From a virus, in IMG/VR virus record IMGVR_UViG_3300043446_003867, positions 1-64,000 of that record: DNA of 64,000 nucleotides, one strand, 5' to 3'. The position numbers were made by a program, and so were the translations under genes. Positions 1 through 39,489 of this stretch are shown here, piece by piece. A model generated the notes under the pieces. It was not told the DNA's origin. It did not search any database and saw nothing but the letters and a program-made list of their open reading frames with translations. The number at the start of each line of letters is the position of its first letter. The stretch's first letter is position 1.

Positions 1-136
1 GCGGGCCCCCCCCCCGCCGGGGCGCCCGAAGTGGGATGCACGCTAGATTCTCTCGGCATCGGCGCGGTTCGCAGAGCGAACCGCTGCCAATGCCGCATTA
101 CGCGCGTCATAGCCGCGCGTAGGGAACCAAGAAGAA

Positions 137-11316: not shown

Positions 11317-11334
11317 CGCACCGGAGGTGCCCCT

Positions 11335-23892: not shown

Positions 23893-23924
23893 TTTTTGCT
23901 TGGCGGCGCGTCATAGTCGCGCGC

Positions 23925-24790: not shown

Positions 24791-25569
24791 ATTGGTGCGA
24801 AGAGGACGGGCGCTCTGGTTGGCGCGAAACAGGCGCGGTCAGCACGAGTAACTTCGCGGCGTGGGACTTCTGGACCAAGGCGGCGCGGCTCGTGTGCGCG
24901 GTCGAGGGTCGCCATGCGGATTACGTAAGCGCGTTGACCGATGGCGTGCTCGACGTGGGGCCGTTGGCGATCCCGCTCGACGTGCGCGCGGCGACGATGC
25001 GGCATCAGACAGCGGGCGGCGCGTCGATACTTGGCGAGATACCGATACACGCGTGGCGTGAGGCGATGGGGTTGGAGTGTGCGCAGACGAGCGTTGGCTT
25101 TACTCGCGCGCGTGAGGATGGGGGGCCGGTGTTCACAATCGGTGTGACGCCGATCGTAGGCGACGAGTTGCGCCACGTATTCTTGGGCGGCAGCGATGGC
25201 GTGACGTGGACGGAACAGCAGCGAACGTTGAGCGGGCAGTGGGTGGCTGCGATTTCGCGATTGCTGCGGCACGAGGGTGCGCGTGGGAAATTGCTCGTGG
25301 GAATCGGCGACGCGTTGAAACTCCATGTGTTCGGGACGCCTGCGCACATGCGGGTGATGCAGTTGGTCGCGAGCAGGCAGTACCGCGCGGTGGGCGTCTA
25401 CCTTGCGTTGGCAGTCAACGCGGACGCGGCGGCGTTGCGCGTGGCGAACTTTGCGGGCTGGGATGCGGGCCGTATGATGGAAGCGGCGGCGATGGCGGGT
25501 CCGTGGCCGGAGACGTTTGCAGTGCGGATCCCGCGCATTCGCGCGGCACTAGAGCGAGAGGGTTGGTAA
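24787..25569 (+). CDS. hypothetical protein
   Basis: TTGA overlap; TAATG coupling to the next gene. Confidence 0.55.
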   Translation: MNWCEEDGRSGWRETGAVSTSNFAAWDFWTKAARLVCAVEGRHADYVSALTDGVLDVGPLAIPLDVRAATMRHQTAGGASILGEIPIHAWREAMGLECAQTSVGFTRAREDGGPVFTIGVTPIVGDELRHVFLGGSDGVTWTEQQRTLSGQWVAAISRLLRHEGARGKLLVGIGDALKLHVFGTPAHMRVMQLVASRQYRAVGVYLALAVNADAAALRVANFAGWDAGRMMEAAAMAGPWPETFAVRIPRIRAALEREGW

Positions 25570-26141
25570 TGTCGGGGCGGCACAACGGCGGTGGAGAACC
25601 GAACAAGCGCGGCGAGAGTCGCATCGTGACGATGGAACAGCGCAGGGAGCGACTGGACCTGATCGAACAACTGATGGTGCGCGGAGTCGGTGCGACGAAG
25701 ATCGAGAAGGCGTGTGCCGAGAAGTTCGGGATGCCGCGCAGCACGGTGTTGAAGTACATGGAGAGGCTGCGCGAGCAGTGGGCAGAAGAGGAACGCGTTA
25801 CACGCCCGACCAATAAAGCGACGGCGCAGCGGCGGCTCTACCAACACATTCAGAAGGCGCGCGAGGCGGATAACTGGGCGGCGGTTGCGTCGTTGGAGCG
25901 CCTGCTGTCGGATATCCAAGGCACGAAGGAGGCAACGGAGGTGAACGTGAACCTCGAAGCCATGTCGCGAGAAGCGACGCTGCACGTCATCGCGAACATC
26001 ACGCCGGAGATGCGTGAGAAGATCCTGGGTGAGCAGCGGCGGCTTCGAGAGCTGGCGGCGAAGATCGATACGAGCGCGATGATTCCCGTGGTGACGCCGG
26101 AAGAAGTGCTCGCACCGAGCGAATCTTCAGAGGACGAATAA
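25569..26141 (+). CDS. HTH protein, candidate terminase small subunit
   Basis: N-terminal HTH (KFGMPRSTVLKY), helical middle, EVNVNL strand; TerS role is inferred. Confidence 0.45.
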   Translation: MSGRHNGGGEPNKRGESRIVTMEQRRERLDLIEQLMVRGVGATKIEKACAEKFGMPRSTVLKYMERLREQWAEEERVTRPTNKATAQRRLYQHIQKAREADNWAAVASLERLLSDIQGTKEATEVNVNLEAMSREATLHVIANITPEMREKILGEQRRLRELAAKIDTSAMIPVVTPEEVLAPSESSEDE

Positions 26142-26240
26142 AAAACACCGCGCTGGTCGATTTCGACTGGCGCGGTTTTGGGTTTTGGTTTACGTTCTGC
26201 ATGTGGGTTCGACGAGCCCCGAAGGAAAAGGCAGAGAACG
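26140..26240 (+). promoter_or_regulatory. module 1
   Basis: -35 TGGCGC 26168, 17 bp, -10 TACGTT 26191; leader hairpin GGGTTC-GAC-GAGCCC. Confidence 0.8.
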
Positions 26241-26456
26241 ATGGCGAAGAAGAACGAAATCCGAGAAATGAACGGCTTCCAGGTCGGCGAGATCGTTCGC
26301 GGCCCCGTGGTCGGTGTCTTCAAGATCGTCGAATTCGCGGAGATGGCTGGGGAGATGCGGGCGATGCTGCGCCTCGCGGCGATCGTGAATGGCGAGGTGA
26401 TCGTGAGCCGCGCGAAGTCGGCGCTGCTGCCCTCGGAGCTTCGCAAGCTCGCGTGA
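26241..26456 (+). CDS. cassette 1 ORF, 71 aa
   Basis: ATG directly after the module RBS. Confidence 0.75.
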   Translation: MAKKNEIREMNGFQVGEIVRGPVVGVFKIVEFAEMAGEMRAMLRLAAIVNGEVIVSRAKSALLPSELRKLA

Positions 26457-26462
26457 GGCGAT

Positions 26463-26560
26463 AAAAAATCTCAAACTCGCGTCGATTTTTACTGGTGCGG
26501 GTTTGGGTTTCGGTTTATGGTCTGCTCATCGGTCAATGACCGACAACGAGGAGAACGACA
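26463..26560 (+). promoter_or_regulatory. module 2
   Basis: TGGTGC 26493, 17 bp, TATGGT 26516; hairpin TCGGTC-AAT-GACCGA; SD GAGGAG. Confidence 0.8.
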
Positions 26561-26935
26561 ATGGGACGGATGATCAACTTTCAGGAATACCTCGCGATCA
26601 ACCACGTCGCTTCTGGTCCCGTGGTCGTGGACAACAACTACGGCGTACCGTGCCACAAGTGCGGCATCCGTATTAACCGCAGCGCGATCTGGCGGCACCT
26701 TCGCGCGGGCAAGCCCGGCGGGTGCGCGTATGTCTCGCCCGAGGAGGCGCGTGGTTACGTTGCCGGTGTCGCGTGTCAGCCCGCGGACGAGCCGGCGGGC
26801 GACCGGTCGGCGGTGCTCCAGTGGCGCAAGGGCTACAAGCGCGGGAAGGAAGATCGTATGCAGATGCTTCGACTCGGGAAGCGGGAAGCTCTCGTGAGCG
26901 TTTACGCGCGCTGCAAAGCGGCCCTTGGGTGCTGA
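26561..26935 (+). CDS. cassette 2 ORF, Zn-finger-like
   Basis: CHKC...H...C; follows the module. Confidence 0.75.
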   Translation: MGRMINFQEYLAINHVASGPVVVDNNYGVPCHKCGIRINRSAIWRHLRAGKPGGCAYVSPEEARGYVAGVACQPADEPAGDRSAVLQWRKGYKRGKEDRMQMLRLGKREALVSVYARCKAALGC

Positions 26936-26945
26936 TCGCGAAGAA

Positions 26946-27058
26946 CTCCTCTCGGAAAAAAAACGAGAGGGGTTCGATTTTGACTAGCGTGGGTTCGGGT
27001 TTCGGTTTATGATGACTGTGTTGGGTCAATGAGCCCACGAAGAGAGAGGCAGAAGACG
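26946..27058 (+). promoter_or_regulatory. module 3
   Basis: poly-A-loop hairpin; TAGCGT 26985, 17 bp, TATGAT 27008. Confidence 0.8.
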
Positions 27059-27451
27059 ATGAACAACGAACTCAATTCCCGTGCGTTCAACGCGTGGTCA
27101 CTCCTCGCGGAGTTCCACTTCAGCGCGGAACAGGTCCGGATGATCGTGCAGGCGGTGGCGCACTTGTCGTTCGAACAGCAGGTGAAACTGGCGGTGGCGC
27201 TCTACGACATCGGGATGCGTGCGGAGTTCCTTCACGAAGAGGAGCGGTCGCTCGCGAAGCGGGTGGCGTATCTGGCGAGCAAGCAGGGGTCGATCGCGAA
27301 CGACATCGCGGCGATTCAGTCGATCGCGAAGTCGATCGAGGATCTTCGTGCGCGATACAAGGCGGCGAGCGAGAAGTTTCATCAAATGGCGAATTTCGCC
27401 GAGGTGAAACTTGCTCCCGAAATGTTCCCCGCGGACTTCGGTCGGATCTGA
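27059..27451 (+). CDS. cassette 3 ORF, coiled coil
   Basis: ATG after the module. Confidence 0.75.
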   Translation: MNNELNSRAFNAWSLLAEFHFSAEQVRMIVQAVAHLSFEQQVKLAVALYDIGMRAEFLHEEERSLAKRVAYLASKQGSIANDIAAIQSIAKSIEDLRARYKAASEKFHQMANFAEVKLAPEMFPADFGRI

Positions 27452-27462
27452 GCGGGGGCGCC

Positions 27463-27567
27463 ATGTTCATCGCGGATTGCTGCCACGGGTGGATCAATCT
27501 CGGCCTTTGCGCCCTCGCGGCGTACGCGGGCCATCGCTTTCAAATGTTCGTGAACCCGGAGAATTGA
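27463..27567 (+). CDS. 34-aa hydrophobic peptide
   Basis: G-rich SD, fills the gap. Confidence 0.35.
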   Translation: MFIADCCHGWINLGLCALAAYAGHRFQMFVNPEN

Positions 27568-27568
27568 G

Positions 27569-27745
27569 ATGAGAACGACGATGCACAAGGACGGTTCGAT
27601 CACGTATTGGAGCGTCCACCGCCAGCAGTGGGTTCGCCGCTCGCGCGGTGTCGACTTCGCGGATCTCGTCGCGATGCCCGAAAAGCTGCGCCTGCGCGTG
27701 CAGCGTCATATCGCACGACACACCCTCAAGGAGTGCGCGCCGTGA
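27569..27745 (+). CDS. 58-aa hypothetical (not in ORF track)
   Basis: SD GGAG, MRTTMHKDGSITYWSV..., GTGA overlap with the next ORF. Confidence 0.55.
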   Translation: MRTTMHKDGSITYWSVHRQQWVRRSRGVDFADLVAMPEKLRLRVQRHIARHTLKECAP

Positions 27746-27939
27746 GCCTTCGAATCGCGCTTTGGGTCGATCGTGTGAGCGATCCAACCGACCCGGTGTG
27801 GATCGTTTCGCTGGAGGACGACGATAGCAGCGAGACGCTGCGCGTCTGCCCGTTCAATGAGGCGGGCGAGCGTACGGCGCGCAAGGTCGCGAAGCAGGCG
27901 GCGACCCGTCGCGGGATCCCGCTTCAGGTGGAGTCGTGA
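27742..27939 (+). CDS. hypothetical (GTG start)
   Basis: SD AAGGAG, 4-nt overlaps. Confidence 0.6.
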   Translation: MSLRIALWVDRVSDPTDPVWIVSLEDDDSSETLRVCPFNEAGERTARKVAKQAATRRGIPLQVES

Positions 27940-28226
27940 AGGCGTTCCGGCTCTCGCAGGCGGTCGTCGATCACATTGCCGAAGACTTCGATCCGGCTGA
28001 CGACGTGGTCGGCGACGAGGAGTACCTGCAACGTGCGCGGGTGCTTCGCGCGCTCATCGCGGGCGAAGCGGTGGAGCGGGCATCCGCGGTTCGCGCGCTC
28101 CACGAAGCGGCGAACGCGTGCGACGATCGGCTCGTCGAAGGGAAGCTCGACGGGTACGAGCGGCAGCACCAAGCGCGAATGCGCGATGCTCTCACTGCGG
28201 CGGCGTATCGGTACGCGGCGCGGTAA
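27936..28226 (+). CDS. hypothetical protein
   Basis: SD GGAG, GTGA overlap. Confidence 0.6.
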   Translation: MKAFRLSQAVVDHIAEDFDPADDVVGDEEYLQRARVLRALIAGEAVERASAVRALHEAANACDDRLVEGKLDGYERQHQARMRDALTAAAYRYAAR

Positions 28227-28814
28227 TCACTCGACAACTCGGCGTTCCTGCATCCACGTCCACAACGATGCGCCCCAAAAGGCGTAGCCCTCGGGGGTCG
28301 CGTGGATGCCGTCATTTTGGCGCGCGATCACGATGCGCGTGGAGTCGAAGGCGATCGGCGACAGCATAACGGCGCGCTGGACGGCGTGCCGGACGGGATA
28401 GCGGACGGGAAGCGTCGGAGGGCTGATCCACACGAGCACGGCGTCGGCGTGGTTCGCGGCGGCTTGAAGTTCGCTGATCCTGGCGTCGATGTTTGCCGCG
28501 TCGCCGACAACTGCGTCGTTGGTTCCGAGGCTGACGAGCACGAGCGAAGGCTTGGTGCGCGCAAGGAGATTGCGCAAGACGGCGGGCCAGTGGACGACGC
28601 GCGAGCCGCGAACGGCGACCGTCGTCCACTCGTAACCGGCTCGCTCGGCGATGCGTTGAAGATGGGGACCAAAGCCTTCGGCGTGCGAGTCGCCGATCAA
28701 TAGGATGCGCTCACCTCGACGAACGGCGGCGGCGTGGCAGTCAAACTCAAGTTCCGCGGAAGTTTTGCGAGAGGTCGACGCGAGTAGGGAGAGGGCGAGC
28801 AGAAGCGAGCGCAT
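28227..28814 (-). CDS. exported SGNH/GDSL hydrolase
   Basis: signal-like MRSLLLALSLLA; IGDSH, LGTND and DGIH blocks. Confidence 0.88.
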   Translation of the reverse strand: MRSLLLALSLLASTSRKTSAELEFDCHAAAVRRGERILLIGDSHAEGFGPHLQRIAERAGYEWTTVAVRGSRVVHWPAVLRNLLARTKPSLVLVSLGTNDAVVGDAANIDARISELQAAANHADAVLVWISPPTLPVRYPVRHAVQRAVMLSPIAFDSTRIVIARQNDGIHATPEGYAFWGASLWTWMQERRVVE

Positions 28815-28831
28815 CGCGCTACGCTGCACGC

Positions 28832-29551
28832 ATGACCGTCGACGAGCAAGTCATCGACGGGGGGCCATGGACCTGCGACGATGCGGGCACCTGCAAGCGC
28901 TTACTTTTCCGTATGTATTGGCAGCCGGTGGACGAGGCCGGCAACGTGGTGGAAAACGAGTGGGAGCACTCACAGGCGCGCGCGCGACGGGAGGCGATCG
29001 CGAAGCCGAAGCAGACCGAGAAGAGGCCCGAAGTGAAGATCGAACAGGTTGAGGAAGCGCACGCGGCACCCGCACACGAAACGCGCGCGCAAGTTCCCGA
29101 CGCACCGGCGGCGGCGCCGGTAGCACAGATCGCCGTTCCATCCCCTGCAACGGCGGCGCACGAGGTTGCAGGGCTGATGCCCGCTGGAGGGGCGGCGAAC
29201 GGCATCACAGTCGTTCTCGCCGCGATCGCCGTGCTCGGTGGTGGGGCTGGGTGGAAGTTCTATTCGCAATGGGCGAAGCAGAAGCACGAGGAACGGATGG
29301 CCGAGATCGAGCGCGGCGCGCGCGTCGACGACGATGGCAAGAAGCGTTGCGAGGGGCACGCACAAGAAAGTCGCGTGGCAGTCGCGAACGTCGACGCGAA
29401 GGTCGAAGCGTTGACTCAGCGCATCGCATCGCTGGAGGCGCGTAACTCGGACACGGCGGCAATCTCGTTTGGAGAGAACGTCGAGGACCGACTCGTGAAG
29501 ATTGAAAAGGCGTTGAAGGCTGCAAAGCGACGTGCGACGACGGCGCGATGA
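28832..29551 (+). CDS. membrane protein with one TM helix and coiled coil
   Basis: ITVVLAAIAVLGGGAGW TM segment; possible lysis accessory. Confidence 0.6.
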   Translation: MTVDEQVIDGGPWTCDDAGTCKRLLFRMYWQPVDEAGNVVENEWEHSQARARREAIAKPKQTEKRPEVKIEQVEEAHAAPAHETRAQVPDAPAAAPVAQIAVPSPATAAHEVAGLMPAGGAANGITVVLAAIAVLGGGAGWKFYSQWAKQKHEERMAEIERGARVDDDGKKRCEGHAQESRVAVANVDAKVEALTQRIASLEARNSDTAAISFGENVEDRLVKIEKALKAAKRRATTAR

Positions 29552-30459
29552 CTCGCGAGCGCCTGCTGACGATTGCACTGGTGATCGGCGCCGTCGCTCT
29601 GGGCGGCGCCGTTTGGTTTCAGCGTCGAGAGATCCGCCGGCTCCGCGCCGACGTCGAGCAGAAGGACGGAGAGATTCGGCGTCTCGGTGCCGGCATCGTC
29701 GTCGTGCGCGAAGTGAAGGGCGATCCGGCGACGGTGCTCGTGGCCGCGGAGCGCGCTGGGTTCGATGTTGCCACGCTCAGGGCAGACTTGGATGATCACG
29801 GAATGGTGCTCAGGGGGGTCTTAAACGCGTCCGCGAGCACGCAAGGTGGCGTGACCCCACCACACGAAGGAAAGCCCCTCGGCGGGTCGGCTACGGGCTC
29901 GCAAACGAGCATCGAGGAACGCGCGGGTGACGGCGTCGTGCCGTGGGGCCGAGCGGTGTACGATCCTGCGCAGGCGAAACCGTGGACGGTGGAGCAGTAC
30001 CCGAGGACGTACTCCGCGGGCGTCGCGCTCGCGGAGCGGGAAGACGGATCGCAGTTCGCTTACGTGACGATGGGGATCGAGTCGCAGGGCTCGCGCGTGA
30101 AGCTGGAGCCCTCGGCTGTTGAGCTGACGACGACGCCGGAGCCCTCGCGCTGGCGATGGGGCGCGTGGCCGTTGCTGACGCTAGACGCCGGTTTACGGGC
30201 AGGTTCGTTCGAGTGGTTTCCGGGCGTGGCAGTCGCGTTCGCGACGCGAGGAACGCGCGCTGGAGCGCCGGAATGGACCTTCCTCGCGGCGGGGCTCGCG
30301 TACGGAATCGAAGGGCGCCGCGCGGCGTTGTCGTTCGCGCCGGTGAGTTACACGCTCCGCGATCTTCTCCCGGTACGAAGCACGAGCGTCGGCCCGGCAA
30401 TCTTCGTCGACGAACGCGCGGAACTCACGTACGCGGTCGGCTTGCGCGTGGTTTTCTGA
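29548..30459 (+). CDS. N-anchored envelope protein with beta-rich C-terminus
   Basis: N-terminal TM helix, coiled coil, amphipathic strands, ends YAVGLRVVF. Confidence 0.6.
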   Translation: MTRERLLTIALVIGAVALGGAVWFQRREIRRLRADVEQKDGEIRRLGAGIVVVREVKGDPATVLVAAERAGFDVATLRADLDDHGMVLRGVLNASASTQGGVTPPHEGKPLGGSATGSQTSIEERAGDGVVPWGRAVYDPAQAKPWTVEQYPRTYSAGVALAEREDGSQFAYVTMGIESQGSRVKLEPSAVELTTTPEPSRWRWGAWPLLTLDAGLRAGSFEWFPGVAVAFATRGTRAGAPEWTFLAAGLAYGIEGRRAALSFAPVSYTLRDLLPVRSTSVGPAIFVDERAELTYAVGLRVVF

Positions 30460-30474
30460 GAGGATTCGCGCGAG

Positions 30475-30582
30475 AAAAAAAAAAACGACACGGTGTGTCG
30501 ATTCTCACTGGCGCGGTTTTGGGTTTTGGTTTACGGTGACTGTGTTGGGTCAATGAGCCCACAAGGAGAGAGGCAGAAGACA
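30475..30582 (+). promoter_or_regulatory. module 4
   Basis: A11 + CGACAC/GTGTCG hairpin; TGGCGC 30509, 17 bp, TACGGT 30532. Confidence 0.8.
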
Positions 30583-30876
30583 ATGGCGATGTTCAAAGTT
30601 CTCTACGCGAAGAAAATCGATCTTCCTCGTCGGGCGCCCGTCGTTTTTGACTCGTGGTTCGATACCATCGGCGACGTCGAGGCGAATTCCACCGAAGGCG
30701 TGTTCGAGTACATGAACACCGAAGGGCCTAGCAAGTTCAACGTGCGATCGATGATGGTCGGCGACGTCGTGATCGCTGACGATGGCGCGTGGCGTTGCGA
30801 GCCGGCTGGTTGGTGTCTGGTCGATATCCTGAGCACCGCCGAGCTGATTCCTCGGTTCGTAGGAAAAACCGCCTGA
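30583..30876 (+). CDS. cassette 4 ORF (YodL-like motif)
   Basis: VFEYMN...RSMMVGDVV...W. Confidence 0.7.
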   Translation: MAMFKVLYAKKIDLPRRAPVVFDSWFDTIGDVEANSTEGVFEYMNTEGPSKFNVRSMMVGDVVIADDGAWRCEPAGWCLVDILSTAELIPRFVGKTA

Positions 30877-30899
30877 TCGGCGCGTCGGGATTCTCAGAG

Positions 30900-31000
30900 A
30901 AAAAAAAACGAACCCGCGTCGATTTCGACTGGCGCGGGTTCGGGTTTCGGTTTATGGTCTGCATGTGGGTTCGATGAGCCCCAAGGAAAGGCAGAAGACG
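30900..31000 (+). promoter_or_regulatory. module 5
   Basis: TGGCGC 30930, 17 bp, TATGGT 30953. Confidence 0.8.
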
Positions 31001-31153
31001 ATGAAGATCAGCAAAGCAGAACTCGCCGTTGTCCGTAAGATCGCCGCCGCCATGAAGGCGAAAGACGCGGTGGCGGCTGAGAAGCTGCTCCGGTCGCTTC
31101 GCCCCGAGATCCTGCCGGAACTGGCGGCGGTGATCCGGGAAATGATGGCGTGA
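31001..31153 (+). CDS. cassette 5 ORF a, 50 aa
   Basis: ATG after the module. Confidence 0.7.
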   Translation: MKISKAELAVVRKIAAAMKAKDAVAAEKLLRSLRPEILPELAAVIREMMA

Positions 31154-31178
31154 ATTGCTCAACGAAAGGGAGACGAAA

Positions 31179-31400
31179 ATGGCTCGTGATCTTGCAGTCG
31201 AGTTTGGTTCCTTCGCTGACGTGTGTGTGATCGTTCGCGCGTACAGCGATGCTGGGCGTCGCTTTCTGGCGCAGATGGCGGGTGTCGCGGCGGAGTACTA
31301 CGCGCCCGTCGAGTCGATCGAATTGCGCAAGAGCGCGGCGCAGGACGTGTGGAATCGCGCGGTCGATGCCGGCTTGGTGATCGATTGCGTCGCGCGCTGA
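31179..31400 (+). CDS. cassette 5 ORF b
   Basis: SD AGGGAG. Confidence 0.6.
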   Translation: MARDLAVEFGSFADVCVIVRAYSDAGRRFLAQMAGVAAEYYAPVESIELRKSAAQDVWNRAVDAGLVIDCVAR

Positions 31401-31409
31401 CGGCGCGGG

Positions 31410-31522
31410 TGAGGCGGCGAAAAAAAAGACGCCGCCTCATTTTTTGACTAGCGCGGGTTCGGGTTTCGGTTTATGGTAGCTGCGTTGGGTCAATGAGCCC
31501 ACGAAGAGAAAGGCAGACGACG
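31410..31522 (+). promoter_or_regulatory. module 6
   Basis: TGAGGCGGCG-A-rich loop-CGCCGCCTCA + T6; TAGCGC 31449, 17 bp, TATGGT 31472. Confidence 0.8.
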
Positions 31523-31705
31523 ATGAGCGAGCGCGAAATCAAGATGCTGGCTGTGATCGAAGCGGCGAAGGAACTGGCCGAGGCGCACCATGAGGCGTTC
31601 CTCGCCGCGCCGTCGCGAGAGAACCGCGACAAGGCGCGGAAGGCGTCGTACGCGGTCCTTGACTGGATCGCTCGATACCGCGCGGAGTTCCTTTCCCGCG
31701 GTTGA
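31523..31705 (+). CDS. cassette 6 ORF, 60 aa
   Basis: ATG after the module. Confidence 0.7.
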   Translation: MSEREIKMLAVIEAAKELAEAHHEAFLAAPSRENRDKARKASYAVLDWIARYRAEFLSRG

Positions 31706-31711
31706 GCGGTG

Positions 31712-31817
31712 AAAAAAAAAAACGAGTGGCGTCGTTTTTTGACTGGCGCGGTTTTGGGTTTAGGGTTACGGTAGCTGTGTTGGGTCAATGAGCCCACGAA
31801 GAGAAAGGCAGACGACA
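31712..31817 (+). promoter_or_regulatory. module 7
   Basis: TGGCGC 31744, 17 bp, TACGGT 31767. Confidence 0.8.
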
Positions 31818-32153
31818 ATGGCGTACATCAATAGCGAGAAGGTTGCGCAGATCCGGGCGTCGCTGAAGAAGGCGCTTCCTGAGTACAAGTTTTCCGTCCG
31901 GAAGAACTCGGGGAACCACGGTGTGACCGTGTCGATCATGGCGGGGCCGAAGCGGTTCGCAGCAGCGGATCACTCGCAGCTGAATCACTACCGCATCGAG
32001 TGGTACGAAAACGCAGACGTGCTCGAAAAGATCGTGGATATCGCGAACGACGGCAACCACGACAACTCGGAACCGCAGTTCGACTACTTCGACGTTGGCT
32101 GGTACATTCACCTGGAGCAAGGGCGCTGGAACCAGCCCTACGTCATGCAGTGA
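31818..32153 (+). CDS. cassette 7 ORF, LPD29-like
   Basis: IRASLKKALPEYKFSVR...VSIMAGP resembles large-polyvalent-protein-associated domains. Confidence 0.55.
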   Translation: MAYINSEKVAQIRASLKKALPEYKFSVRKNSGNHGVTVSIMAGPKRFAAADHSQLNHYRIEWYENADVLEKIVDIANDGNHDNSEPQFDYFDVGWYIHLEQGRWNQPYVMQ

Positions 32154-32158
32154 CGGTG

Positions 32159-32270
32159 AAGATCCCCCCTCGAAAAAAGCGATGGGGGATCTTTTTTTGC
32201 TGGTTCGGTTTCGGGTTTGGGTTTATGGTCTGCTCATCGGTGAACGACGCCGACAACGAGGAGAAAGAAA
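32159..32270 (+). promoter_or_regulatory. module 8
   Basis: A-loop hairpin + T7; TGGTTC 32201, 17 bp, TATGGT 32224; SD GAGGAG. Confidence 0.8.
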
Positions 32271-32534
32271 ATGGCTCACGCAATCGAATCCTTCGCCGCT
32301 GAATCCGTCGCTGCCAAGCGTCCCGCGCAGTTGCGCGACAGCAACAACAAGCAGTTCATCGCGACCCGCTTCGACCGCATGTGCCAGTGCGGGCATCCCG
32401 CGAGCGTTCACTCGGCGAAGCAGATCGTGGTCGAGGGGCGCAAGATGCGTGAGTGCTTCTGTGCGGACTTCGATGAGTCGGTGGAGCCCTGCGAATGCGA
32501 ACTCTTCAAGGCTGCGAAGAAGAAGGCGGCGTGA
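32271..32534 (+). CDS. cassette 8 ORF, Cys/His-rich
   Basis: CQCGH...H...C...CEC. Confidence 0.75.
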   Translation: MAHAIESFAAESVAAKRPAQLRDSNNKQFIATRFDRMCQCGHPASVHSAKQIVVEGRKMRECFCADFDESVEPCECELFKAAKKKAA

Positions 32535-32539
32535 TCGGG

Positions 32540-32649
32540 AAGCCCTCTCGAAAAAAAGCGAGGGGGCTCTTTTTTTACTGGCGAGGGTTCGGGTTTCGGG
32601 TTACGTTCTGCTCATCGATCAAGGGATCGACAACGAGAAGGAGACGACA
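32540..32649 (+). promoter_or_regulatory. module 9
   Basis: A-loop hairpin + T7; TGGCGA 32579, 17 bp, TACGTT 32602; hairpin TCGATC-AAGG-GATCGA. Confidence 0.8.
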
Positions 32650-32943
32650 ATGAACGCGATGGTGACCATCCAACAGCTCTGCGGCGGCAACGGCAACCGG
32701 CTCGTGGCGATGATCGGCGCGCACTCGTTCTTGGCGGGGAAGAACGAACTCCACTTCCAATTCAAGGGATCCCGCGCGGCGAATCGGGTGAAGATCGAAC
32801 TCAACGCGTTCGATCTCTACGATGTTACTTTCTTCGCGGGCCGTGGCGTCAACGTGCGCGAGGTGGAGCGGATCTCGAATGTTCCCGCTGAGAATCTTCG
32901 GCGCGTGTTCGTCGGTTTCACTGGACTCGACGTTTCGCTCTGA
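32650..32943 (+). CDS. cassette 9 ORF, phage hypothetical
   Basis: QL.GG..R..AM.GA...DLY.V.F...TGL pattern; SD AAGGAG. Confidence 0.75.
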   Translation: MNAMVTIQQLCGGNGNRLVAMIGAHSFLAGKNELHFQFKGSRAANRVKIELNAFDLYDVTFFAGRGVNVREVERISNVPAENLRRVFVGFTGLDVSL

Positions 32944-32963
32944 TCCGAGGGGATCGGGGGTGG

Positions 32964-33066
32964 AAAAAAAAAACGAACCCACGTCGATTTCGACTGGCGT
33001 GGGTTCGGGTTTCGGTTTATGGTCTGCTCATCGGTCAACGGGCCGACAACGAAAAGGCAGAAGACA
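32964..33066 (+). promoter_or_regulatory. module 10
   Basis: TGGCGT 32995, 17 bp, TATGGT 33018. Confidence 0.8.
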
Positions 33067-33258
33067 ATGAAGATCGAACAGATTCCCGCGGAGATGAAGA
33101 AGGCGATCGCGAAGGACATGGCGGCGATTCGTGAGGCGTTCGAACTGGCGGAGGCGAGCTACGACGCGGAGCTGATGGCTCGCGCGGTGCGCGCGTACGG
33201 TCGGCTGTGCGACATGTGCGCGGAGTTCGGTCTGCCCTGCCCCGCTGTCATTTGCTGA
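33067..33258 (+). CDS. cassette 10 ORF a
   Basis: ATG after the module. Confidence 0.7.
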   Translation: MKIEQIPAEMKKAIAKDMAAIREAFELAEASYDAELMARAVRAYGRLCDMCAEFGLPCPAVIC

Positions 33259-33270
33259 AGGAGAACTGAC

Positions 33271-33462
33271 ATGAGACTGCCAAACGTCATCGCACTTTCG
33301 ACTGTTGCAGATCTGCTGGACGCGTCTCGCTCGCGCCTCTCTTTCGAGGCGGTCAACGAGCTGGAGTGTCTTCCCGAGGCGTGGACTGTTCGCAAGGCGT
33401 GGTCCTCGTTGTCGCGCGATACGCGTGCAGCGATCCGCGCGTCGCAGGTAGTCGCGGGCTGA
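33271..33462 (+). CDS. cassette 10 ORF b
   Basis: SD AAGGAG. Confidence 0.7.
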   Translation: MRLPNVIALSTVADLLDASRSRLSFEAVNELECLPEAWTVRKAWSSLSRDTRAAIRASQVVAG

Positions 33463-33468
33463 TGCTGG

Positions 33469-33577
33469 AAGCCCTCTCGAAAAAACGAGGGGGCTCTTTT
33501 TTTTACTGGCGTGGTTTTGGGTTTCGGGTTACGTTCTGCATGTGGGTTCGATGAGCCCCAAGGAAAGGCAGAGAACG
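33469..33577 (+). promoter_or_regulatory. module 11
   Basis: A-loop hairpin + T8; TGGCGT 33507, 17 bp, TACGTT 33530. Confidence 0.8.
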
Positions 33578-33955
33578 ATGAACGCTCACGAGATCAAGAT
33601 CGCCGAGGAAGCTTACGAGGGTGCGGGCGTGGAGGCGGCGCTGGTTGTGGCGCGCGGTGCGCTGCGTAGCGCGCGCGTCGCGGGTAAAGCGGCGAAGTCG
33701 GCGGCGGAACACGAGGTCGCGGCGCTGGCGTACAAGCGCGCGGTCGAAGCGATCGAAGCGGCGCGCGCGGCGATGTGGAGGGCGCTTTACGGGTGGTGTG
33801 TCGCGGTCGACGAATTGGAGCGCGCGGACGCGAACGATCGCGCGCGGCGGAGCCCCTACGCGGCGCTTGAGGCTGGCTTGGAGGCGGGGCTGAAGGAAGC
33901 GAACGAAGCGAACGGGATGCACGCGCTGGCGTACGTGCGCGCGATGCGTGCGTGA
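33578..33955 (+). CDS. cassette 11 ORF, helical; paralog of the cassette 12 ORF
   Basis: ATG after the module; alignable to 34071..34475. Confidence 0.75.
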   Translation: MNAHEIKIAEEAYEGAGVEAALVVARGALRSARVAGKAAKSAAEHEVAALAYKRAVEAIEAARAAMWRALYGWCVAVDELERADANDRARRSPYAALEAGLEAGLKEANEANGMHALAYVRAMRA

Positions 33956-33960
33956 TCGCG

Positions 33961-34070
33961 GATCCTCCTCTCTCGAAAACGCGAGGGGGGGATCGTTTTC
34001 TACTGGTTCGGTTACAGGTTTTGGGTTATGCTCATCGCGGTGGGTCGATGAACCCGAAAATGGAAAGGAA
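33961..34070 (+). promoter_or_regulatory. module 12 (diverged)
   Basis: hairpin + T4; TGGTTC 34004, 17 bp, TATGCT 34027. Confidence 0.75.
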
Positions 34071-34475
34071 ATGGCTATGAAAGACGCAATCGCGATCCGG
34101 ATTGAACAGCGTGAGGCGGAGCTTGCCGCGTCGGCGTATCGCGCGGCGAACGTTGAGGAGATGCTTCGTGTTTCGCGCGAGAAGCTGCTCGAAGCGCGTC
34201 GCCTTGGAGACGTCGCAGATGGCGAGGAGAACTACGAAGCGTATGGTGCGGCGGCGCTCGCATACGACGAGGCGGCAGTGGCTATCGGGAAGGCGCGCCG
34301 TGCGCTCGGTGGGGCATACGTGAGCTGGAGCGATGCAGTCGCGAAGTGGGAACGCCCGGACGCGTACGACTTCGCGCCGCGGAATCCTTACGAGAAGATC
34401 GAAGCGGTACTTGAGGAGGAGCGGGAAGAAGTGAACGCAGGGCGGCGACTCTACTCGCTTCTGGCGATGTTCTGA
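34071..34475 (+). CDS. cassette 12 ORF, helical
   Basis: ATG after the module. Confidence 0.75.
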   Translation: MAMKDAIAIRIEQREAELAASAYRAANVEEMLRVSREKLLEARRLGDVADGEENYEAYGAAALAYDEAAVAIGKARRALGGAYVSWSDAVAKWERPDAYDFAPRNPYEKIEAVLEEEREEVNAGRRLYSLLAMF

Positions 34476-34487
34476 GAATCCTGGCCG

Positions 34488-34605
34488 GATCCTCTCATCG
34501 AAAAAAAAAAGCGATGAGGGGATCTTTTTTTGCTGGTTCGGTTTCGGGTTTGGGTTTATGGTCTGCTCATCGGTCAACGGGCCGACAACGGGAAGGCAGA
34601 AGAAG
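34488..34605 (+). promoter_or_regulatory. module 13
   Basis: A10-loop hairpin + T7; TGGTTC 34534, 17 bp, TATGGT 34557. Confidence 0.8.
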
Positions 34606-34806
34606 ATGAGCGCATTCGGGAAGGGTCAGATCGTCGTCGCGAAGTCGGCAGCGCAGGGGCTCGTGAAGGGTCGGAAGTACGTGGTGCTGGCTGTCCTGAA
34701 CACCGTCGGCGGCTGGTATCTCTACGAGGTGCACGGGGTGGAGGGATCGAACAACTCGGTCCTCCGGATCGCCAACGCGCAGTTCGTCTTTTCTGAGGTG
34801 AAGTGA
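34606..34806 (+). CDS. cassette 13 ORF, SH3-like beta protein
   Basis: ATG after the module; F.KGQIV...L.KGRKY.V pattern. Confidence 0.7.
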   Translation: MSAFGKGQIVVAKSAAQGLVKGRKYVVLAVLNTVGGWYLYEVHGVEGSNNSVLRIANAQFVFSEVK

Positions 34807-34814
34807 TCGGGCGG

Positions 34815-34922
34815 GAACGCCTCGCGAGTGGATCGCGGGGCGTTCTTTTTCGCTTGATAGGTTTCGGGTTTCGGGTTATGGTTTCCGTATCGGACAAGGT
34901 TCCGACAACGAGGAGATGAGCG
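34815..34922 (+). promoter_or_regulatory. module 14 with canonical terminator
   Basis: GAACGCCTCGCGA/TCGCGGGGCGTTC + T5; TTGATA 34854, 17 bp, TATGGT 34877; SD GAGGAG. Confidence 0.85.
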
Positions 34923-35033
34923 ATGAACAACGAGGAAGTGCTTGAGGCGAACGCGGGCGAGATCGAGGCGGACGAGCGGCGCGCGGAGGAGATCGACGAC
35001 GCGGAGTGTTACGGCGCGGAGCATTGGGGCTGA
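34923..35033 (+). CDS. cassette 14 ORF, 36-aa acidic peptide (not in ORF track)
   Basis: MNNEEVLEANAGEIEADERRAEEIDDAECYGAEHWG, correctly spaced from the SD. Confidence 0.7.
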   Translation: MNNEEVLEANAGEIEADERRAEEIDDAECYGAEHWG

Positions 35034-35040
35034 ACGGCGC

Positions 35041-35069
35041 AAAAAAGCCCGCGGAGGGTATCCGCGGGC
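35041..35069 (-). terminator. terminator for the endolysin
   Basis: GCCCGCGGA/TCCGCGGGC stem preceded by A6 (T6 on the minus strand). Confidence 0.75.
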
Positions 35070-35090
35070 GTCGTTGCATTGTGGGTCAGG

Positions 35091-35552
35091 TCAAACGGGC
35101 TTCATCCACAGGTCGCCTTCGGCTTTGCGGCGCTTGGTGAGGCCGGGGAGGGCTTGGAGCTTTCCGCCGACGGTGGCCTTGTCCCACATGGCGAGACCGG
35201 CGGGAACCAGCTCCGGCTTACCGGCGCGGAGGTTTTTCATCGCGGTGGAGTCATTGAGCGGGCCGGAGCCGACGTTGTAAGTCCAGCTGACGAGGGCATC
35301 GAACTGGTTCTGATTGAGCGGCGGAAGGTTCGCGCGATGGATCGCCTTCTCGAAGCGAACGAGGTCTTTCGCGAGCAGTTCGCTGGCCTGGGCTTCGGTC
35401 AGCTCGGTAAACGTCTCGCCCTTCTCGACAACGTGGCCGTAGCCGATGGTCGGCTTACCGGCGGGGCAGAGGTAGACTTTCGGGACGAAGCCTTCGCAGT
35501 CTTTGATCAGCTTGAGGCCAGCGGCGCCGGTTTTGAGATGTTCGTTGCTCAT
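35091..35552 (-). CDS. endolysin, GH24 lysozyme
   Basis: EG...YLCPAGKPTIGYGH, NQNQFDALVS.TYNVG and GLTKRRKAE motifs. Confidence 0.95.
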   Translation of the reverse strand: MSNEHLKTGAAGLKLIKDCEGFVPKVYLCPAGKPTIGYGHVVEKGETFTELTEAQASELLAKDLVRFEKAIHRANLPPLNQNQFDALVSWTYNVGSGPLNDSTAMKNLRAGKPELVPAGLAMWDKATVGGKLQALPGLTKRRKAEGDLWMKPV

Positions 35553-35763
35553 GGTCGAATTTCCTCCGGGAAAAGCCAGGGTAACGAAAAAAAGTGATCA
35601 GGCGAGACAAAAACGGACGCGGAGCGCGTCATGGGGGAAGTCGTATCCCGAAGGGAACGGATGGGGGTGAGGAGCCGGGAGGGAAAGGACGGCAGGAAGC
35701 GTCGCCCAGTTGGGTACTGGGGAGGCAGAAAAGGGCTTGATGATAACTAGCCGTTAATACCGA

Positions 35764-36180
35764 GTGGCGCGCGAGGCAGGGACCGTGGAGAGAGCGAAGA
35801 CGGGAAAGAAACGACGGGTGACGCGGACTCGACGGCAGTTGAGTGTGGGGGAGCGGTTCGGCGCGTTGGTTGTGGAGACGGTACGCCCGACGACGTTTCG
35901 ATGTGACTGCGGGAAGGTCGTCGAGAAGCGGATGCCGTATGCGGTCTACACGAGCAAGCATCCTAGCTGCGGGTGTAAGCGAGTCGCGTACAAGAGCGAG
36001 AAGCGAACGAACTCGCCGAACTACGAGCTAGTCGGCTTGGCGAATGACGCAGACAAGGTCACGTACATGCGCTGGCGGGTGAGGTGTAGGAAGTGCGGAG
36101 CGGAACTCACTGTCTCGAATGGTCAGCTCTTGGTCAGTAGGAAGAACCGCTACGGGTGTCGAATCTGCCTCATGGGGTAG
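35764..36180 (+). CDS. basic double Zn-finger protein
   Basis: GERFGALVV...CDCG...SCGC and CRKCG...CRIC; no HNH core seen. Confidence 0.6.
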   Translation: MAREAGTVERAKTGKKRRVTRTRRQLSVGERFGALVVETVRPTTFRCDCGKVVEKRMPYAVYTSKHPSCGCKRVAYKSEKRTNSPNYELVGLANDADKVTYMRWRVRCRKCGAELTVSNGQLLVSRKNRYGCRICLMG

Positions 36181-36198
36181 AAAGTCGAGTTCTAACCG

Positions 36199-36528
36199 AT
36201 GACGTTGGGAAGATTGCTGCGGGGAATCAGGGAAGAGAGAGGGTGGACGCTGAGGCATGTCGCGAAACGCGCGGGATTGTCGCCGACGATCGTGTCGAGA
36301 GTGGAGACGGACCAGGATAGGATCGCGCCCGATACGCTCGAATCACTCCTGGTGACGATCGAAGCGAACGAGGAGCAGACCACGCGGGCGTTCTTTCTCG
36401 CAGGTAGGTTCCCGGACTCCGTGCTGGAACGCGCGCTGGCGTCAGAGGAGAACTTCGCGAGCGTCATCCGGTTCGTTCGTAGTCTCCCGATCCCGAACCC
36501 TTCCCGCTATCCGGCTCGATCTCCCTGA
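36199..36528 (+). CDS. XRE-family HTH regulator
   Basis: LRGIREERGWTLRHVAKRAGLS...SRVE. Confidence 0.88.
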   Translation: MTLGRLLRGIREERGWTLRHVAKRAGLSPTIVSRVETDQDRIAPDTLESLLVTIEANEEQTTRAFFLAGRFPDSVLERALASEENFASVIRFVRSLPIPNPSRYPARSP

Positions 36529-37147
36529 GCGTGTACCCGTATGCGGCGGTCTATCGTTCTCCGCGAGACGTTCGAGAGAGATGGTCTGACCCCCGTTCGC
36601 GGTACCCTCTGAGCGCCCCGGTCGTCGTATCGATGAACTCACTCGTACCCCATCGCTCACGACCCATTTTCAACCCCGTTCCACCCTCACGGTAGATGAT
36701 TCGTACCGTCGAGTTTTCCAGCGAAATAATCGCAACGGATTGGCCTACGCTGGTCGCTTCGCGCGTCTCCTCAGCGGTCAGAAGGCCGATTGCCGGGCCG
36801 TGACCGGCCCTCCCCGAGCCTTTCGAGAGCCACCCTAGGGGTCGATGACCCCCGAGGCATCGACGCGTTAAAACGCCGTTTAGGAGGAAGTTGCTCCGAG
36901 GGGGATCGGTACGGTGTGAACCGAAACGGTCGTTTCGGGTCACGGAGGGGCGACTCGGGTGCTCGGAATTGGCCGACGTTACCCTTTACGTGGGGGCATG
37001 CCCTGGCTCGATCTTGCGGTCGTTTCCTCGCGGCTGACCGCGGCTGCGGGCCGCTGGGCGGCTCGCCGAGGCCGCTGGCACGCGAGGGGGGTGCAGGGGA
37101 AGTGACGGGGGGCGTGCAGGACAAGGGTACCCCAAACTCGTCGTGAC

Positions 37148-37237
37148 AAATTTTTAGGTTAGGCGACTTGAAGGGATTCGGGTTTTGGGTTACGCACAAA
37201 GGAGTGGCCGAAGGTCGGTCGACGGAGGTGGAGAGGA
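37148..37237 (+). promoter_or_regulatory. module 15 (diverged)
   Basis: TTGAAG 37168, 17 bp, TACGCA 37191; hairpin GGCCGA-AGG-TCGGTC; SD GGAGG. Confidence 0.65.
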
Positions 37238-37289
37238 ATGAGCGCGAAGGTTGTCGGTGAGTGCGTCATGGGTGGAGTGGAGGTGTGTG

Positions 37290-37628
37290 ATGCGAGTGTT
37301 TTTGACTCCGAGGGCGTTGGTTGGGGTTGGTGAGTGGGAGCGGGTGGGGGAAGCGATATTGTTCGGGTGTGAGGAGTATTTGATCGGGGGTGTGTCGTTC
37401 GTGGTGTGGAGCGAGGACGAGGGGTCGCGGGTATTGGGGGCGGTGTATGAGATCGACGCGGAGGGGGTTGAGGGGATTGATCGGCGGATGGTGGATCAGT
37501 CGAGGGAGGAGCGGACGGTGTTGATGGGAGGGGTGGCGGAATTCGCGGAGGTGTATGTGTTGCGGAATCGGGCGTTGTTGGCGGGATCGTGGGACGTGGA
37601 AAAGATGTCGATGAGCGGTCCGGGATGA
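37290..37628 (+). CDS. degenerate gamma-glutamylcyclotransferase (AIG2)-like protein
   Basis: SD GGAGGT; VLGAVYEI...IDRR...R...V...AEVYV pattern. Confidence 0.45.
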   Translation: MRVFLTPRALVGVGEWERVGEAILFGCEEYLIGGVSFVVWSEDEGSRVLGAVYEIDAEGVEGIDRRMVDQSREERTVLMGGVAEFAEVYVLRNRALLAGSWDVEKMSMSGPG

Positions 37629-37630
37629 CG

Positions 37631-37709
37631 AATTCTACTTGATTGGGTTCGGGTTTCGGGATATGGTCTGCTTGTGGGTTCAAGGAGCCCCGAAGAAGGA
37701 GACGGGATC
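37631..37709 (+). promoter_or_regulatory. module 16
   Basis: TTGATT 37639, 17 bp, TATGGT 37662; hairpin GGGTTC-AAG-GAGCCC; SD AAGGAG. Confidence 0.8.
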
Positions 37710-37901
37710 ATGGGAAAGCGAATCAAGATTGACGGTGTGGTTTGTGAGGTTGTGAACGCGTATTCGAGCGGGCCGGGAGCGCCGGCGTTCGAGTACGACC
37801 TACGCGATGGGGGGTATGTGTATTGCGTGGGGCCGGAGTGGAAGTTGCAGATGAGGGGTCAGTTCGCGCGGGTGGTGAACGTCGAGATCATCGCGGAGTG
37901 A
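37710..37901 (+). CDS. cassette 16 ORF, 63 aa
   Basis: ATG after the module. Confidence 0.7.
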   Translation: MGKRIKIDGVVCEVVNAYSSGPGAPAFEYDLRDGGYVYCVGPEWKLQMRGQFARVVNVEIIAE

Positions 37902-37977
37902 TTTTCACTTGCGTGGTTTTGGGTTTCGGTTTATGGTTCCTGTATCGGACAACGATCCGACAACGAGGAGGTGAGTC
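37902..37977 (+). promoter_or_regulatory. module 17
   Basis: TTGCGT 37909, 17 bp, TATGGT 37932; TCGGA/TCCGA hairpin; SD GGAGGT. Confidence 0.8.
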
Positions 37978-38256
37978 GTGGGTGAGTGGAAGTTCAACAA
38001 GTGGGCGGATTGCTACGGGGCGTTGATCGAGGAGATCCCCGAAGTGGCGGCGGCGCGAGTGGCGGAGGTCTTCGGTCGCGGCGTGGAGATGAATCATAAG
38101 GATTACGGGGCGGAGTGGGTTTTCGAGGGGTGTGTCGAGGGGCGGCGGGTGAATTACCGCGTGTATGAGCGCGGGGGCGTCATGAGGTTCGGGGGGCCGC
38201 ATGATCATTTCGGATTTGCGGCGTTCCGCGCGTGGTTTCTGGCGTGTGTTGCGTGA
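37978..38256 (+). CDS. cassette 17 ORF
   Basis: GTG after the module. Confidence 0.7.
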   Translation: MGEWKFNKWADCYGALIEEIPEVAAARVAEVFGRGVEMNHKDYGAEWVFEGCVEGRRVNYRVYERGGVMRFGGPHDHFGFAAFRAWFLACVA

Positions 38257-38272
38257 TCGAAGGAGACGGACG

Positions 38273-38992
38273 ATGGCGAAGAAGATTCTCAAGGAAGCGA
38301 TGTACGCGGTGATTTACGTGCGCGTGAGCACGGATCAGCAGGCGAAGGAGGGGATCGGGCTCGACGCGCAGCTTGCGCGGTGCAAGGCGGTGGCGGAGGC
38401 GCGCGGGTTGATGGTCATCGATGATTTCCGAGACGAGGGAATCAGCGGCAAGGCGGAGATTCGGCTTCGGCCTGGTCTGCAAGCGGCGATCGCGAAGTGT
38501 AAGGAACGGAACGCGATCCTGATTAGTTATTCGGTGAGCCGTATTGCGCGTCGGCAGCGCCTTCTCTGGGATCTGCTCGATCCGGAGGGCGGGCACCGGC
38601 TGGCGTATATCTCGGCGACGGAGCCGTTTGATACGTCGACGCCGATGGGGCGCGCGATGCTCGGGATGATCGGGGTGTGGAGCCAGCTCGAAGCGGACCT
38701 CGTGAGCGAGCGGACGAAGGATGCGCTTGCTCAGGCGAAGGCGCGCGGGACGCGTCTCGGAGCGCCGTCGACGGCGTCGCTCGTTACGGAAAGCGCGGTT
38801 GCGCGGATCGACGCGTTGGCGGCGGAGGGGTTGTCGTTGCGGTTGATCGCGGACAAGTTGAACGCGGAGGGTGTCCCGACGGCGAAGGGGGTCGGGCAGT
38901 GGTGGCCGAAGACGGTGCGGTCCGTATTGGTTGATCTGCAAATCAAGCGGATTGCGGCGCTTCCGCGTCATGAAGAAAGCGAGGAACGATGA
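38273..38992 (+). CDS. small serine recombinase (resolvase domain + short recombinase-type HTH)
   Basis: YVRVST catalytic Ser, DEGISG, RPGL, SRIAR, ERTK, IADKLNAEGVPT...W; SD AAGGAG. Confidence 0.92.
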   Translation: MAKKILKEAMYAVIYVRVSTDQQAKEGIGLDAQLARCKAVAEARGLMVIDDFRDEGISGKAEIRLRPGLQAAIAKCKERNAILISYSVSRIARRQRLLWDLLDPEGGHRLAYISATEPFDTSTPMGRAMLGMIGVWSQLEADLVSERTKDALAQAKARGTRLGAPSTASLVTESAVARIDALAAEGLSLRLIADKLNAEGVPTAKGVGQWWPKTVRSVLVDLQIKRIAALPRHEESEER

Positions 38993-39468: not shown

Positions 39469-39489
39469 TAGGGTGCTGCTCCGGGTGGC

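Follow-up and report, generated by a model that had tools for sequence, protein, structure and literature searches.

Positions 26137-37975 of IMG/VR record IMGVR_UViG_3300043446_003867, an 89081-bp sequence from an uncultured freshwater phage, hold an array of 17 co-oriented repeat modules of ~100 nt that precede small, mostly unrelated genes. The window analysed here is positions 1-64000 of that record, and coordinates refer to it unless a related record is named. We regard the array as probably a promoter-early stem-loop (PeSL)-like, hyperplastic multi-promoter region of insulated expression cassettes in a novel, non-T4 phage. The feature is real and striking: the repeat, its anatomy, the covariation of its hairpins, the mosaicism of its modules and the replacement of its content in relatives are all plain in the sequences compared.

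Each module consists, in order, of an upstream hairpin, a promoter-like core, a leader hairpin, and a Shine-Dalgarno site with a start codon. In the mechanism that we propose, the GC-rich upstream hairpin with its A and T tracts would halt incoming transcription and the core would restart it, presumably early in infection, yielding a leader of ~40 nt that begins with a 5-7-bp hairpin, which may protect the 5' end of the mRNA, and ends with a strong Shine-Dalgarno site and the start codon. With a halt, a restart and a strong Shine-Dalgarno site in every module, each small gene would be a unit that is insulated and strongly expressed. Unrelated genes are flanked by ~100 nt of near-identical sequence, so that homologous recombination between modules could delete, insert or swap cassettes with expression left intact, and the RecA-like and Mre11/Rad50-type (Metallophos, AAA_23) genes of the phage could carry out that exchange.

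Seventeen copies of one module

The first-pass annotation had listed 17 co-oriented modules, and all of them are present: an nhmmer profile built from the 17 sites recovers 17/17, all on the plus strand, with E-values from 2.7e-28 to 1.5e-12. All copies are intergenic, and an independent repeat search recovered the same families. No further copy was found on either strand of the 89081-bp record, the next matches having E-values of at least 4.9. The start of a called gene coincides with the module end in 16/17; in module 15 the in-phase ATG (37238) opens a frame of 31 codons only, and the likely gene, in the frame of 37251-37628, begins a few codons later. Cassette order depends on the original assembly, and contigs of the source run assembled at k=31 span nine modules and break at the other eight (modules 2, 5, 6, 7, 8, 10, 11 and 13). 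The copies are as follows.

Module 1: 26137..26245, plus strand; 13-bp hairpin with the -35/spacer part as its 3' arm, followed by core, leader hairpin and Shine-Dalgarno site; ATG at 26241.
Module 2: 26460..26564, plus strand; upstream hairpin overlaps the -35/spacer part; ATG at 26561.
Module 3: 26955..27064, plus strand; separate 12-bp terminator-like hairpin; ATG at 27059; heads a multi-gene stretch of 3.4 kb.
Module 4: 30478..30587, plus strand; weak 6-bp upstream hairpin that doubles as a minus-strand terminator-like site; ATG at 30583.
Module 5: 30900..31006, plus strand; ATG at 31001; left and middle nearest module 10, right nearest module 11.
Module 6: 31419..31527, plus strand; ATG at 31523; shares an identical run of 38 nt with module 7.
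Module 7: 31713..31822, plus strand; ATG at 31818; heads a gene with an LPD29 domain.
Module 8: 32168..32274, plus strand; ATG at 32271.
Module 9: 32546..32655, plus strand; ATG at 32650; the gene behind it is a phrog_9437 member.
Module 10: 32964..33072, plus strand; upstream hairpin overlaps the -35/spacer part, with a compensatory change relative to module 5; ATG at 33067.
Module 11: 33476..33583, plus strand; ATG at 33578.
Module 12: 33971..34081, plus strand; ATG at 34077; its gene and that of cassette 11 are paralogues.
Module 13: 34502..34610, plus strand; ATG at 34606.
Module 14: 34831..34931, plus strand; the sole call of the sigma-70 scan (TTGATA-17-TATGGT); ATG at 34923 opens a 36-aa open reading frame (ORF).
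Module 15: 37142..37243, plus strand; the most divergent copy, without an upstream hairpin; -35 place TTGAAG.
Module 16: 37618..37707, plus strand; without an upstream hairpin; -35 place TTGATT; ATG at 37710.
Module 17: 37879..37975, plus strand; without an upstream hairpin; GTG at 37978; the resolvase gene follows without a terminator.

Anatomy of the module

Upstream hairpins, counted by folding, are GC-rich and at least 9 bp long in 12/17 modules, weak in two (modules 4 and 7) and absent beside modules 15-17. Many have an A tract ahead of them and a T tract behind, and nine are called terminator-like by a consensus scan. In modules 1, 2, 5 and 10 the 3' arm of the hairpin is at the same time the conserved -35/spacer part of the core; between modules 10 and 5 both arms have changed and the pairing is kept. 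Placed upstream of or over the promoter boxes, these stem-loops would suit a role as terminators.

The core aligns without insertions or deletions over 45 nt, and the distance from the -35 to the -10 place is fixed at 17 nt. TATGGT or TACGKT stands at the -10 place, which conforms to TAnnnT in 16/17 copies, the exception being module 15 (TACGCA). At the -35 place, modules 1-13 have a TGGCGC-like word with two to three of six matches to TTGACA, a yardstick from which the host's own consensus may differ, and modules 14-17 have TTGnnn with three to five of six. A TTGAC-like word does occur in several copies, but 5 nt too far upstream. The 17-nt spacer is made up of three GGTTTYG-type repeats. Promoters of the sigma-54 and extracytoplasmic function types were considered by eye only and dropped, as the conserved dinucleotides are lacking.

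Such a core could also belong to a phage-specific promoter class or regulon, in which the GGTTTYG repeats and the non-consensus -35 place of modules 1-13 are read by a phage activator, sigma-like factor or repressor, the Xre-type protein encoded at 36199-36528 being an example of a reader; modules 14-17 would then fire first and the other 13 be switched together. The spacer is indeed more conserved (consensus frequency 0.89) than the -10 place (0.87) and the -35 place (0.74), and the split in -35 matches between the 13 modules and modules 14-17 points the same way, as do operator-like palindromes at the same spacer position in modules of two related records (L026 and L028, below) and the presence of a helix-turn-helix gene inside the array. 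Nevertheless, Pfam and PHROGs detect neither a sigma factor nor an RNA polymerase among the 70 window ORFs scanned, a scan from which 64-89 kb of the record was left out, and high spacer conservation could equally stem from recent copying or gene conversion. We consider this reading doubtful; it would alter who reads the promoter and when, not the architecture of the cassettes. In a milder form of the idea, the triple GGTTTYG spacer may define a class of portable promoters that a phage factor reads.

Downstream of the core, the leader hairpin of 5-7 bp begins 7 nt past the -10 place in 17/17 modules, at or next to the expected +1. Its stem pairs were counted by script; MAFFT alignments left the stems out of register. 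Eight distinct outer stems occur, each paired at 5/5 positions, whereas arms crossed between types average 3.34/5, and the observed pairing was equalled in a share of 5e-5 of 20000 permutations. The second pair of the stem is G-C in ten copies and C-G in seven. Fourteen G.U pairs lie on the sense strand of the leader stems, which points to RNA as the level at which the hairpin acts. A purine-rich Shine-Dalgarno site and the start codon follow at a fixed distance. Rfam holds no family for the module and returned one sub-threshold chance match.

These RNA-level features, the sense-strand G.U pairs and the fixed Shine-Dalgarno distance, are the best-supported conserved elements of the module, and together with the weak sigma-70 match of most copies they would suit modules that are not promoters at all. 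Long transcripts would then arise from a few promoters, and the hairpins would be RNA-processing or stabilizing sites combined with translation-initiation sites. Three observations make this improbable. Conservation peaks in a 30-nt stretch that precedes the leader hairpin and is arranged like a promoter, TAnnnT standing 7 nt ahead of that hairpin; the strong terminator-like hairpins before 12/17 modules, many with U tracts, would stop a long transcript; and the equivalent modules of L026 match sigma-70 well.

Mosaic modules and contig joints

For comparison among copies, each module was divided into a left (hairpin), a middle (core) and a right (leader) block. Nearest neighbours switch between blocks: module 5 is closest to module 10 on the left and in the middle (0.96 and 0.97) and to module 11 on the right (0.92); module 11 is closest to module 9 on the left (0.96) and to module 5 on the right; and module 13 is closest to module 8 on the left and in the middle (0.96 and 1.00) and to module 10 on the right. 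Block distance matrices correlate weakly (rho 0.19-0.40). A statistic of the pairwise homoplasy index (PHI) type gave 0.98-1.06 against 1.31 +/- 0.03-0.04 in permuted data, with 0/5000 permutations as low. Of these results the neighbour switches are plainer evidence of mosaicism than the PHI-type statistic, and the internal mosaicism of the modules supports the view that exchange between them probably took place in the past.

Four sequencing runs were compared as contigs, in which read starts, ends, strands and rare junctions are not visible. Joints with one side shorter than 30 letters (in runs X1, X3 and X4) were excluded as probable repeats or other organisms, and array parts uncovered in run X4 were not used as evidence. 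In a second run of the source sample, a 962-nt contig joins position 31483 to 31779 in register, so that cassette 6 is missing; the two sides share 38 letters where modules 6 and 7 meet. A PeSL-type deletion would give such a joint, but a k=31 graph passing a single time through the exact repeat at low depth would give it too, and the joint is counted as a lead only.

Run X4 offers two further pieces, a 261-nt stretch identical to module 8 plus the first part of cassette 8, and a contig tracking module 10 to position 33112 and diverging thereafter. Both are treated as leads, since X4 holds a mixture of relatives.

Flanks kept and content replaced in relatives

The landmarks used in comparing the array with other genomes are listed here.

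13234..14403, plus strand: RecA-like recombinase, candidate driver of homologous exchange between modules.
25569..26141, plus strand: conserved left flank of the array; weak small-terminase match (phrog_4102, 2e-4), a homologue being called MerR-type in one source.
38273..38992, plus strand: small serine recombinase of 239 aa; Pfam Resolvase (3e-33); YxRVSTxxQ motif.
38989..39468, plus strand: Pyr_excise (DenV-like) / phrog_624 protein.
39490..41130, plus strand: large terminase subunit (TerL), start of the conserved structural block.

GenBank phages showed no match to 26000-39500 in a megablast search. A degenerate (IUPAC) core pattern found 16 single, scattered matches in IMG/VR, taken as chance without inspection, and a longer module pattern found one match in JGI metagenome contigs, on an AT-rich, unrelated contig. 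The left-flank protein had no match among GenBank phages, and no relative emerged when its alignment was run against one genome per species.

Three related records were compared with the present genome by ORF-wise tblastn. L028 (G003) keeps the left-flank gene at 53% identity, the recombinase at 61%, TerL at 68.5% and the gene after it at 56%, but its interval from the left flank to the recombinase measures 4.3 kb against 12.1 kb here, and no homologue of an array ORF was found in that interval at E < 1e-4. L026 (G002) has the recombinase directly before TerL and, upstream, five modules of like design: a -35 box, a 17-nt spacer with a palindrome, a -10 box, a covarying hairpin, GGAAAGG and an ATG. 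Their sequence is unrelated to that of the modules here. In 10.2 kb there are just two sigma-70-type calls, against 0.2 expected, and each is one of these modules. L025 (G001) shares structural genes at 91-100% amino acid identity, yet the 8.7 kb before its TerL are unrelated and free of a repeat array. A search of L025 and L026 with the module profile found nothing.

At the place of the array, L028 (11300-12125) has ~650 nt of C-rich, non-coding sequence that contains direct repeats, nested and spaced at 54-170 nt, together with two 50-nt repeats; this block could be an origin or a packaging region.

Homologues of the cassette 7 and 9 genes occur at five loci in otherwise unrelated viral contigs (GC 44-53%). 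At four of the five they stand alone behind a TTGAC-type promoter of their own, in one case with a hairpin over the -35 box, and no other gene at these loci is shared with the array.

The first-pass annotation had further suggested that the repeats are exchange points. Indirect support comes from the mosaic modules, from relatives in which flanks are kept and content is replaced, and from the joint between modules 6 and 7, possibly an artefact. Its proposal that the phage RecA drives the exchange is compatible with the RecA-like gene found in the window, and the mechanism itself is one that we infer.

A number of results weigh against the reading as a shuffling set of promoter cassettes. A simple sigma-70 consensus scan calls module 14 alone (1/17), and recognition by unaided host RNA polymerase is uncertain because 13/17 modules match at two or three of six -35 positions. 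Folded singly, the leaders are no stabler than shuffled sequences (z from -2.40 to +0.78), the leader hairpin is present in the minimum free energy structure of 13/17, and the full pairing within each stem type arises partly by construction, since the best local hairpins were picked. Covarying stems and the poorly alignable left part may inflate the PHI-type statistic. The joint between modules 6 and 7 comes from a k=31 contig over a 38-nt exact repeat at ~5-10x depth and may be an assembly artefact. No close relative bearing the same module was found, so the comparison gave no direct view of cassettes gained or lost through breakpoints within modules. These points are included in our judgement that a PeSL-like array of insulated cassettes is the probable explanation.

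The serine recombinase

The array is followed by the small serine recombinase, whose ATG (38273) lies 16 nt past the stop of the last cassette ORF (38256), as first annotated, with no convincing terminator between them. The protein aligns best to the catalytic domain of the TP901-1 integrase (3.6e-14), its best solved relative, and then to Gin-type invertases; the YxRVSTxxQ motif aligns to that integrase, and the protein has a catalytic domain of the nucleophilic-serine kind. Of the 'Recombinase' domain the first part only is kept (profile positions 6-49 of 102). It lacks zinc-ribbon and coiled-coil parts, and it has the Resolvase catalytic domain in common with small serine recombinases of the resolvase/invertase group and with large serine integrases such as TP901-1.

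The first-pass annotation had raised the idea of integron-style exchange, that is, a platform on which this recombinase site-specifically recombines the modules and so captures, excises and reorders early-gene cassettes. The enzyme looks catalytically intact by its YxRVSTxxQ motif, the 16-nt gap suggests co-transcription with the last cassette, the modules contain inverted repeats, and PMC4122927 leaves 'homologous or site-specific' recombination open for PeSLs. Against this, homologues of the recombinase (59-64% identity) occur in 3/3 related records, never more than 2.7 kb upstream of TerL, and the GGTTTYG module is in none of them, one having no repeat array at all in its 8.7 kb upstream. 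Recombinase and array are thus distributed independently, and the gene appears to travel with the packaging genes, not with the array. The mosaic breakpoints are spread over the blocks, as homologous exchange predicts, and a search for paired sites, inverted or direct, that would tie the recombinase gene to the modules found none, the inverted repeats around the recombinase and the endolysin being short and attributable to chance.

Integrons do resemble the array in their short cassettes, in the repeated elements with inverted repeats between them and in a recombinase gene at one end. The integron integrase IntI is a tyrosine recombinase, and integron cassettes are promoterless and expressed from one common promoter. 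Here the enzyme is a serine recombinase, encoded downstream and in the same orientation, each cassette carries its own promoter-like core, and relatives that lack the repeats have the recombinase as well. We therefore regard an integron-like platform as highly improbable and retain homologous exchange between PeSL-like modules as the candidate route.

The order serine recombinase then TerL is kept in four related phages (window 38273-41130). L025 (4830-6605) has the recombinase and the DenV-like gene in the opposite orientation to TerL, 2.5 kb of unrelated sequence lying in between. The only small-terminase-like match (25569-26141, E 2e-4) lies 13 kb from the recombinase-TerL pair.

Genes in the array and the phage that carries it

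One or two small ORFs follow each of 14 modules, ~3.4 kb with ~8 ORFs follow module 3, and module 14 heads 2.2 kb that include a reverse-strand endolysin. The description of these ORFs as mostly unrelated holds: an all-against-all comparison of 39 proteins gave one related pair, 33578-33955 against 34077-34475, with 36% identity. Pfam and PHROGs leave nearly all array products without a family, and among the 30 array ORFs scanned no match indicates an anti-host, anti-defence or host-takeover function. The anti-defence or host-takeover role first put forward for the array remains a guess, since no match points to it. A look-up of the cassette 11 protein gave weak helical look-alikes only and was set aside. 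The products with an assignment are the following.

31818-32153: LPD29-domain protein (Pfam/PHROGs).
32650-32943: phrog_9437 member of unknown function.
35091..35552, minus strand: endolysin (Phage_lysozyme, 3.7e-38).
35764-36180: weak HNH-like protein.
36199..36528, plus strand: Xre-type helix-turn-helix protein (HTH_31, 5.6e-12), candidate regulator inside the array.
37251-37628: weak AIG2/GGACT-like protein.

Apart from the endolysin gene, every gene called in the 89-kb record is on the plus strand. The endolysin gene brings a terminator-like hairpin on its own, minus, strand (35069-35047), and about 200 nt of apparently non-coding sequence adjoins the gene (window 35047-35763). The AIG2/GGACT-like gene recurs just upstream of the recombinase in L026 (7360-7506) and L028 (13770-14650, the latter by eye) and is the only array gene with any conservation across the relatives.

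The record is 97% complete by CheckV, its ends are given as 'linear' in IMG/VR and its GC content is ~62%. A codon-usage gene call over the 89-kb record places 101 of 102 genes on the plus strand, and no tRNA gene was found within the 64-kb window. Genes recognized in the window include those for a helicase, a DnaB-type helicase, a family B polymerase (PolB), an AAA_23 (Rad50/SbcC-type) ATPase, a DnaG-type primase, the RecA-like protein, a Metallophos (Mre11-type) phosphoesterase and a PDDEXK nuclease; the structural and packaging genes found are those for the large terminase, a portal and a tail-sheath-domain protein. Matches to GenBank phages are distant, at most 31% for TerL and 27% for PolB, and 31% to a Streptomyces phage for the major capsid protein. 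Because the best matches of these three markers stay at or below 31% and the top capsid matches are not T4-like, the phage is by these markers not T4-like.

Several observations from the rest of the genome may be added. A match to a TET-associated glycosyltransferase family (8.9e-12) at 14986-15849 suggests modified DNA bases. The start of the record (window 1-136) is rich in G/C homopolymers, and its end (88987-89081) carries a terminator-like hairpin. A block with the gene 23925-24503 (window 23895-24787) lies ~17 kb upstream of TerL here; its L025 counterpart (10914-11785; 92% amino acid identity) sits between homologues of 41154-41684 and of 41696 onward. A contig of run X4 places the block as L025 does, a translocation between otherwise collinear genomes.

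Significance and comparison with known systems

If this interpretation is correct, the expression and shuffling of promoter-terminator cassettes would not be a peculiarity of T4-type phages but a recurrent solution in unrelated tailed phages, and three relatives appear to follow this layout with sequences of their own. With 17 near-identical units, broadly one gene to each, the array is unusually clean and offers a good natural system for following the gain and loss of small early phage genes. It is also suited to asking what role a 5'-terminal leader hairpin plays in phage mRNAs and why the spacer outconserves the -35 box, and it is a compact source of insulated expression parts.

A looser, functional analogue is the host-takeover module of SPO1, which PMC6873191 describes as ~12 kb of mostly small early genes in many short operons with strong promoters and ribosome-binding sites. 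Cluster size, small genes, predicted promoters, ribosome-binding sites and short operons are shared features. Host shut-off functions are known for the SPO1 genes, unlike those of the array, and no sequence or protein in common was found.

The closest parallel is the PeSL of T4-related phages. As given in Arbiol et al. 2010 (PMC2839356), a PeSL is a conserved motif of ~100 bp with an AT-rich part, a sigma-70-like early promoter and a terminating stem-loop that can be found ahead of the promoter boxes, between them, over them or directly behind them; it ends in the Shine-Dalgarno site and start codon of an orphan gene, is concentrated in hyperplastic regions, and recombines with other PeSLs so that genes are deleted or inserted and mini-circles arise. 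Comeau et al. 2014 (PMC4122927) extend PeSLs to other T4-like pairs. Our literature search on PeSLs and on intergenic repeats with early promoters found only T4-related work to be relevant, although other lineages may have been described.

Set beside those descriptions (PMC2839356, PMC4122927), the modules agree with PeSLs feature by feature: a composite motif of ~100 bp with an A/T-rich part, a promoter or promoter-like core, a stem-loop, a Shine-Dalgarno site and a start codon, orphan genes behind it, a hyperplastic region, and enough similarity between copies to serve as recombination points. The stem-loop placement subclasses of PMC2839356 are matched by the upstream hairpins here, four of which lie over the -35/spacer part. 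The claim of self-contained expression units, made when the array was first annotated, is borne out to this extent. There are also differences. The phage is not T4-like; each unit has two hairpins, one terminator-like and one at the 5' end of the leader; and a spacer of three heptad repeats outconserves the -35 place, which is non-consensus in 13/17 copies. Finally, the 17 copies here are not scattered but stand together in one array of 11.8 kb.

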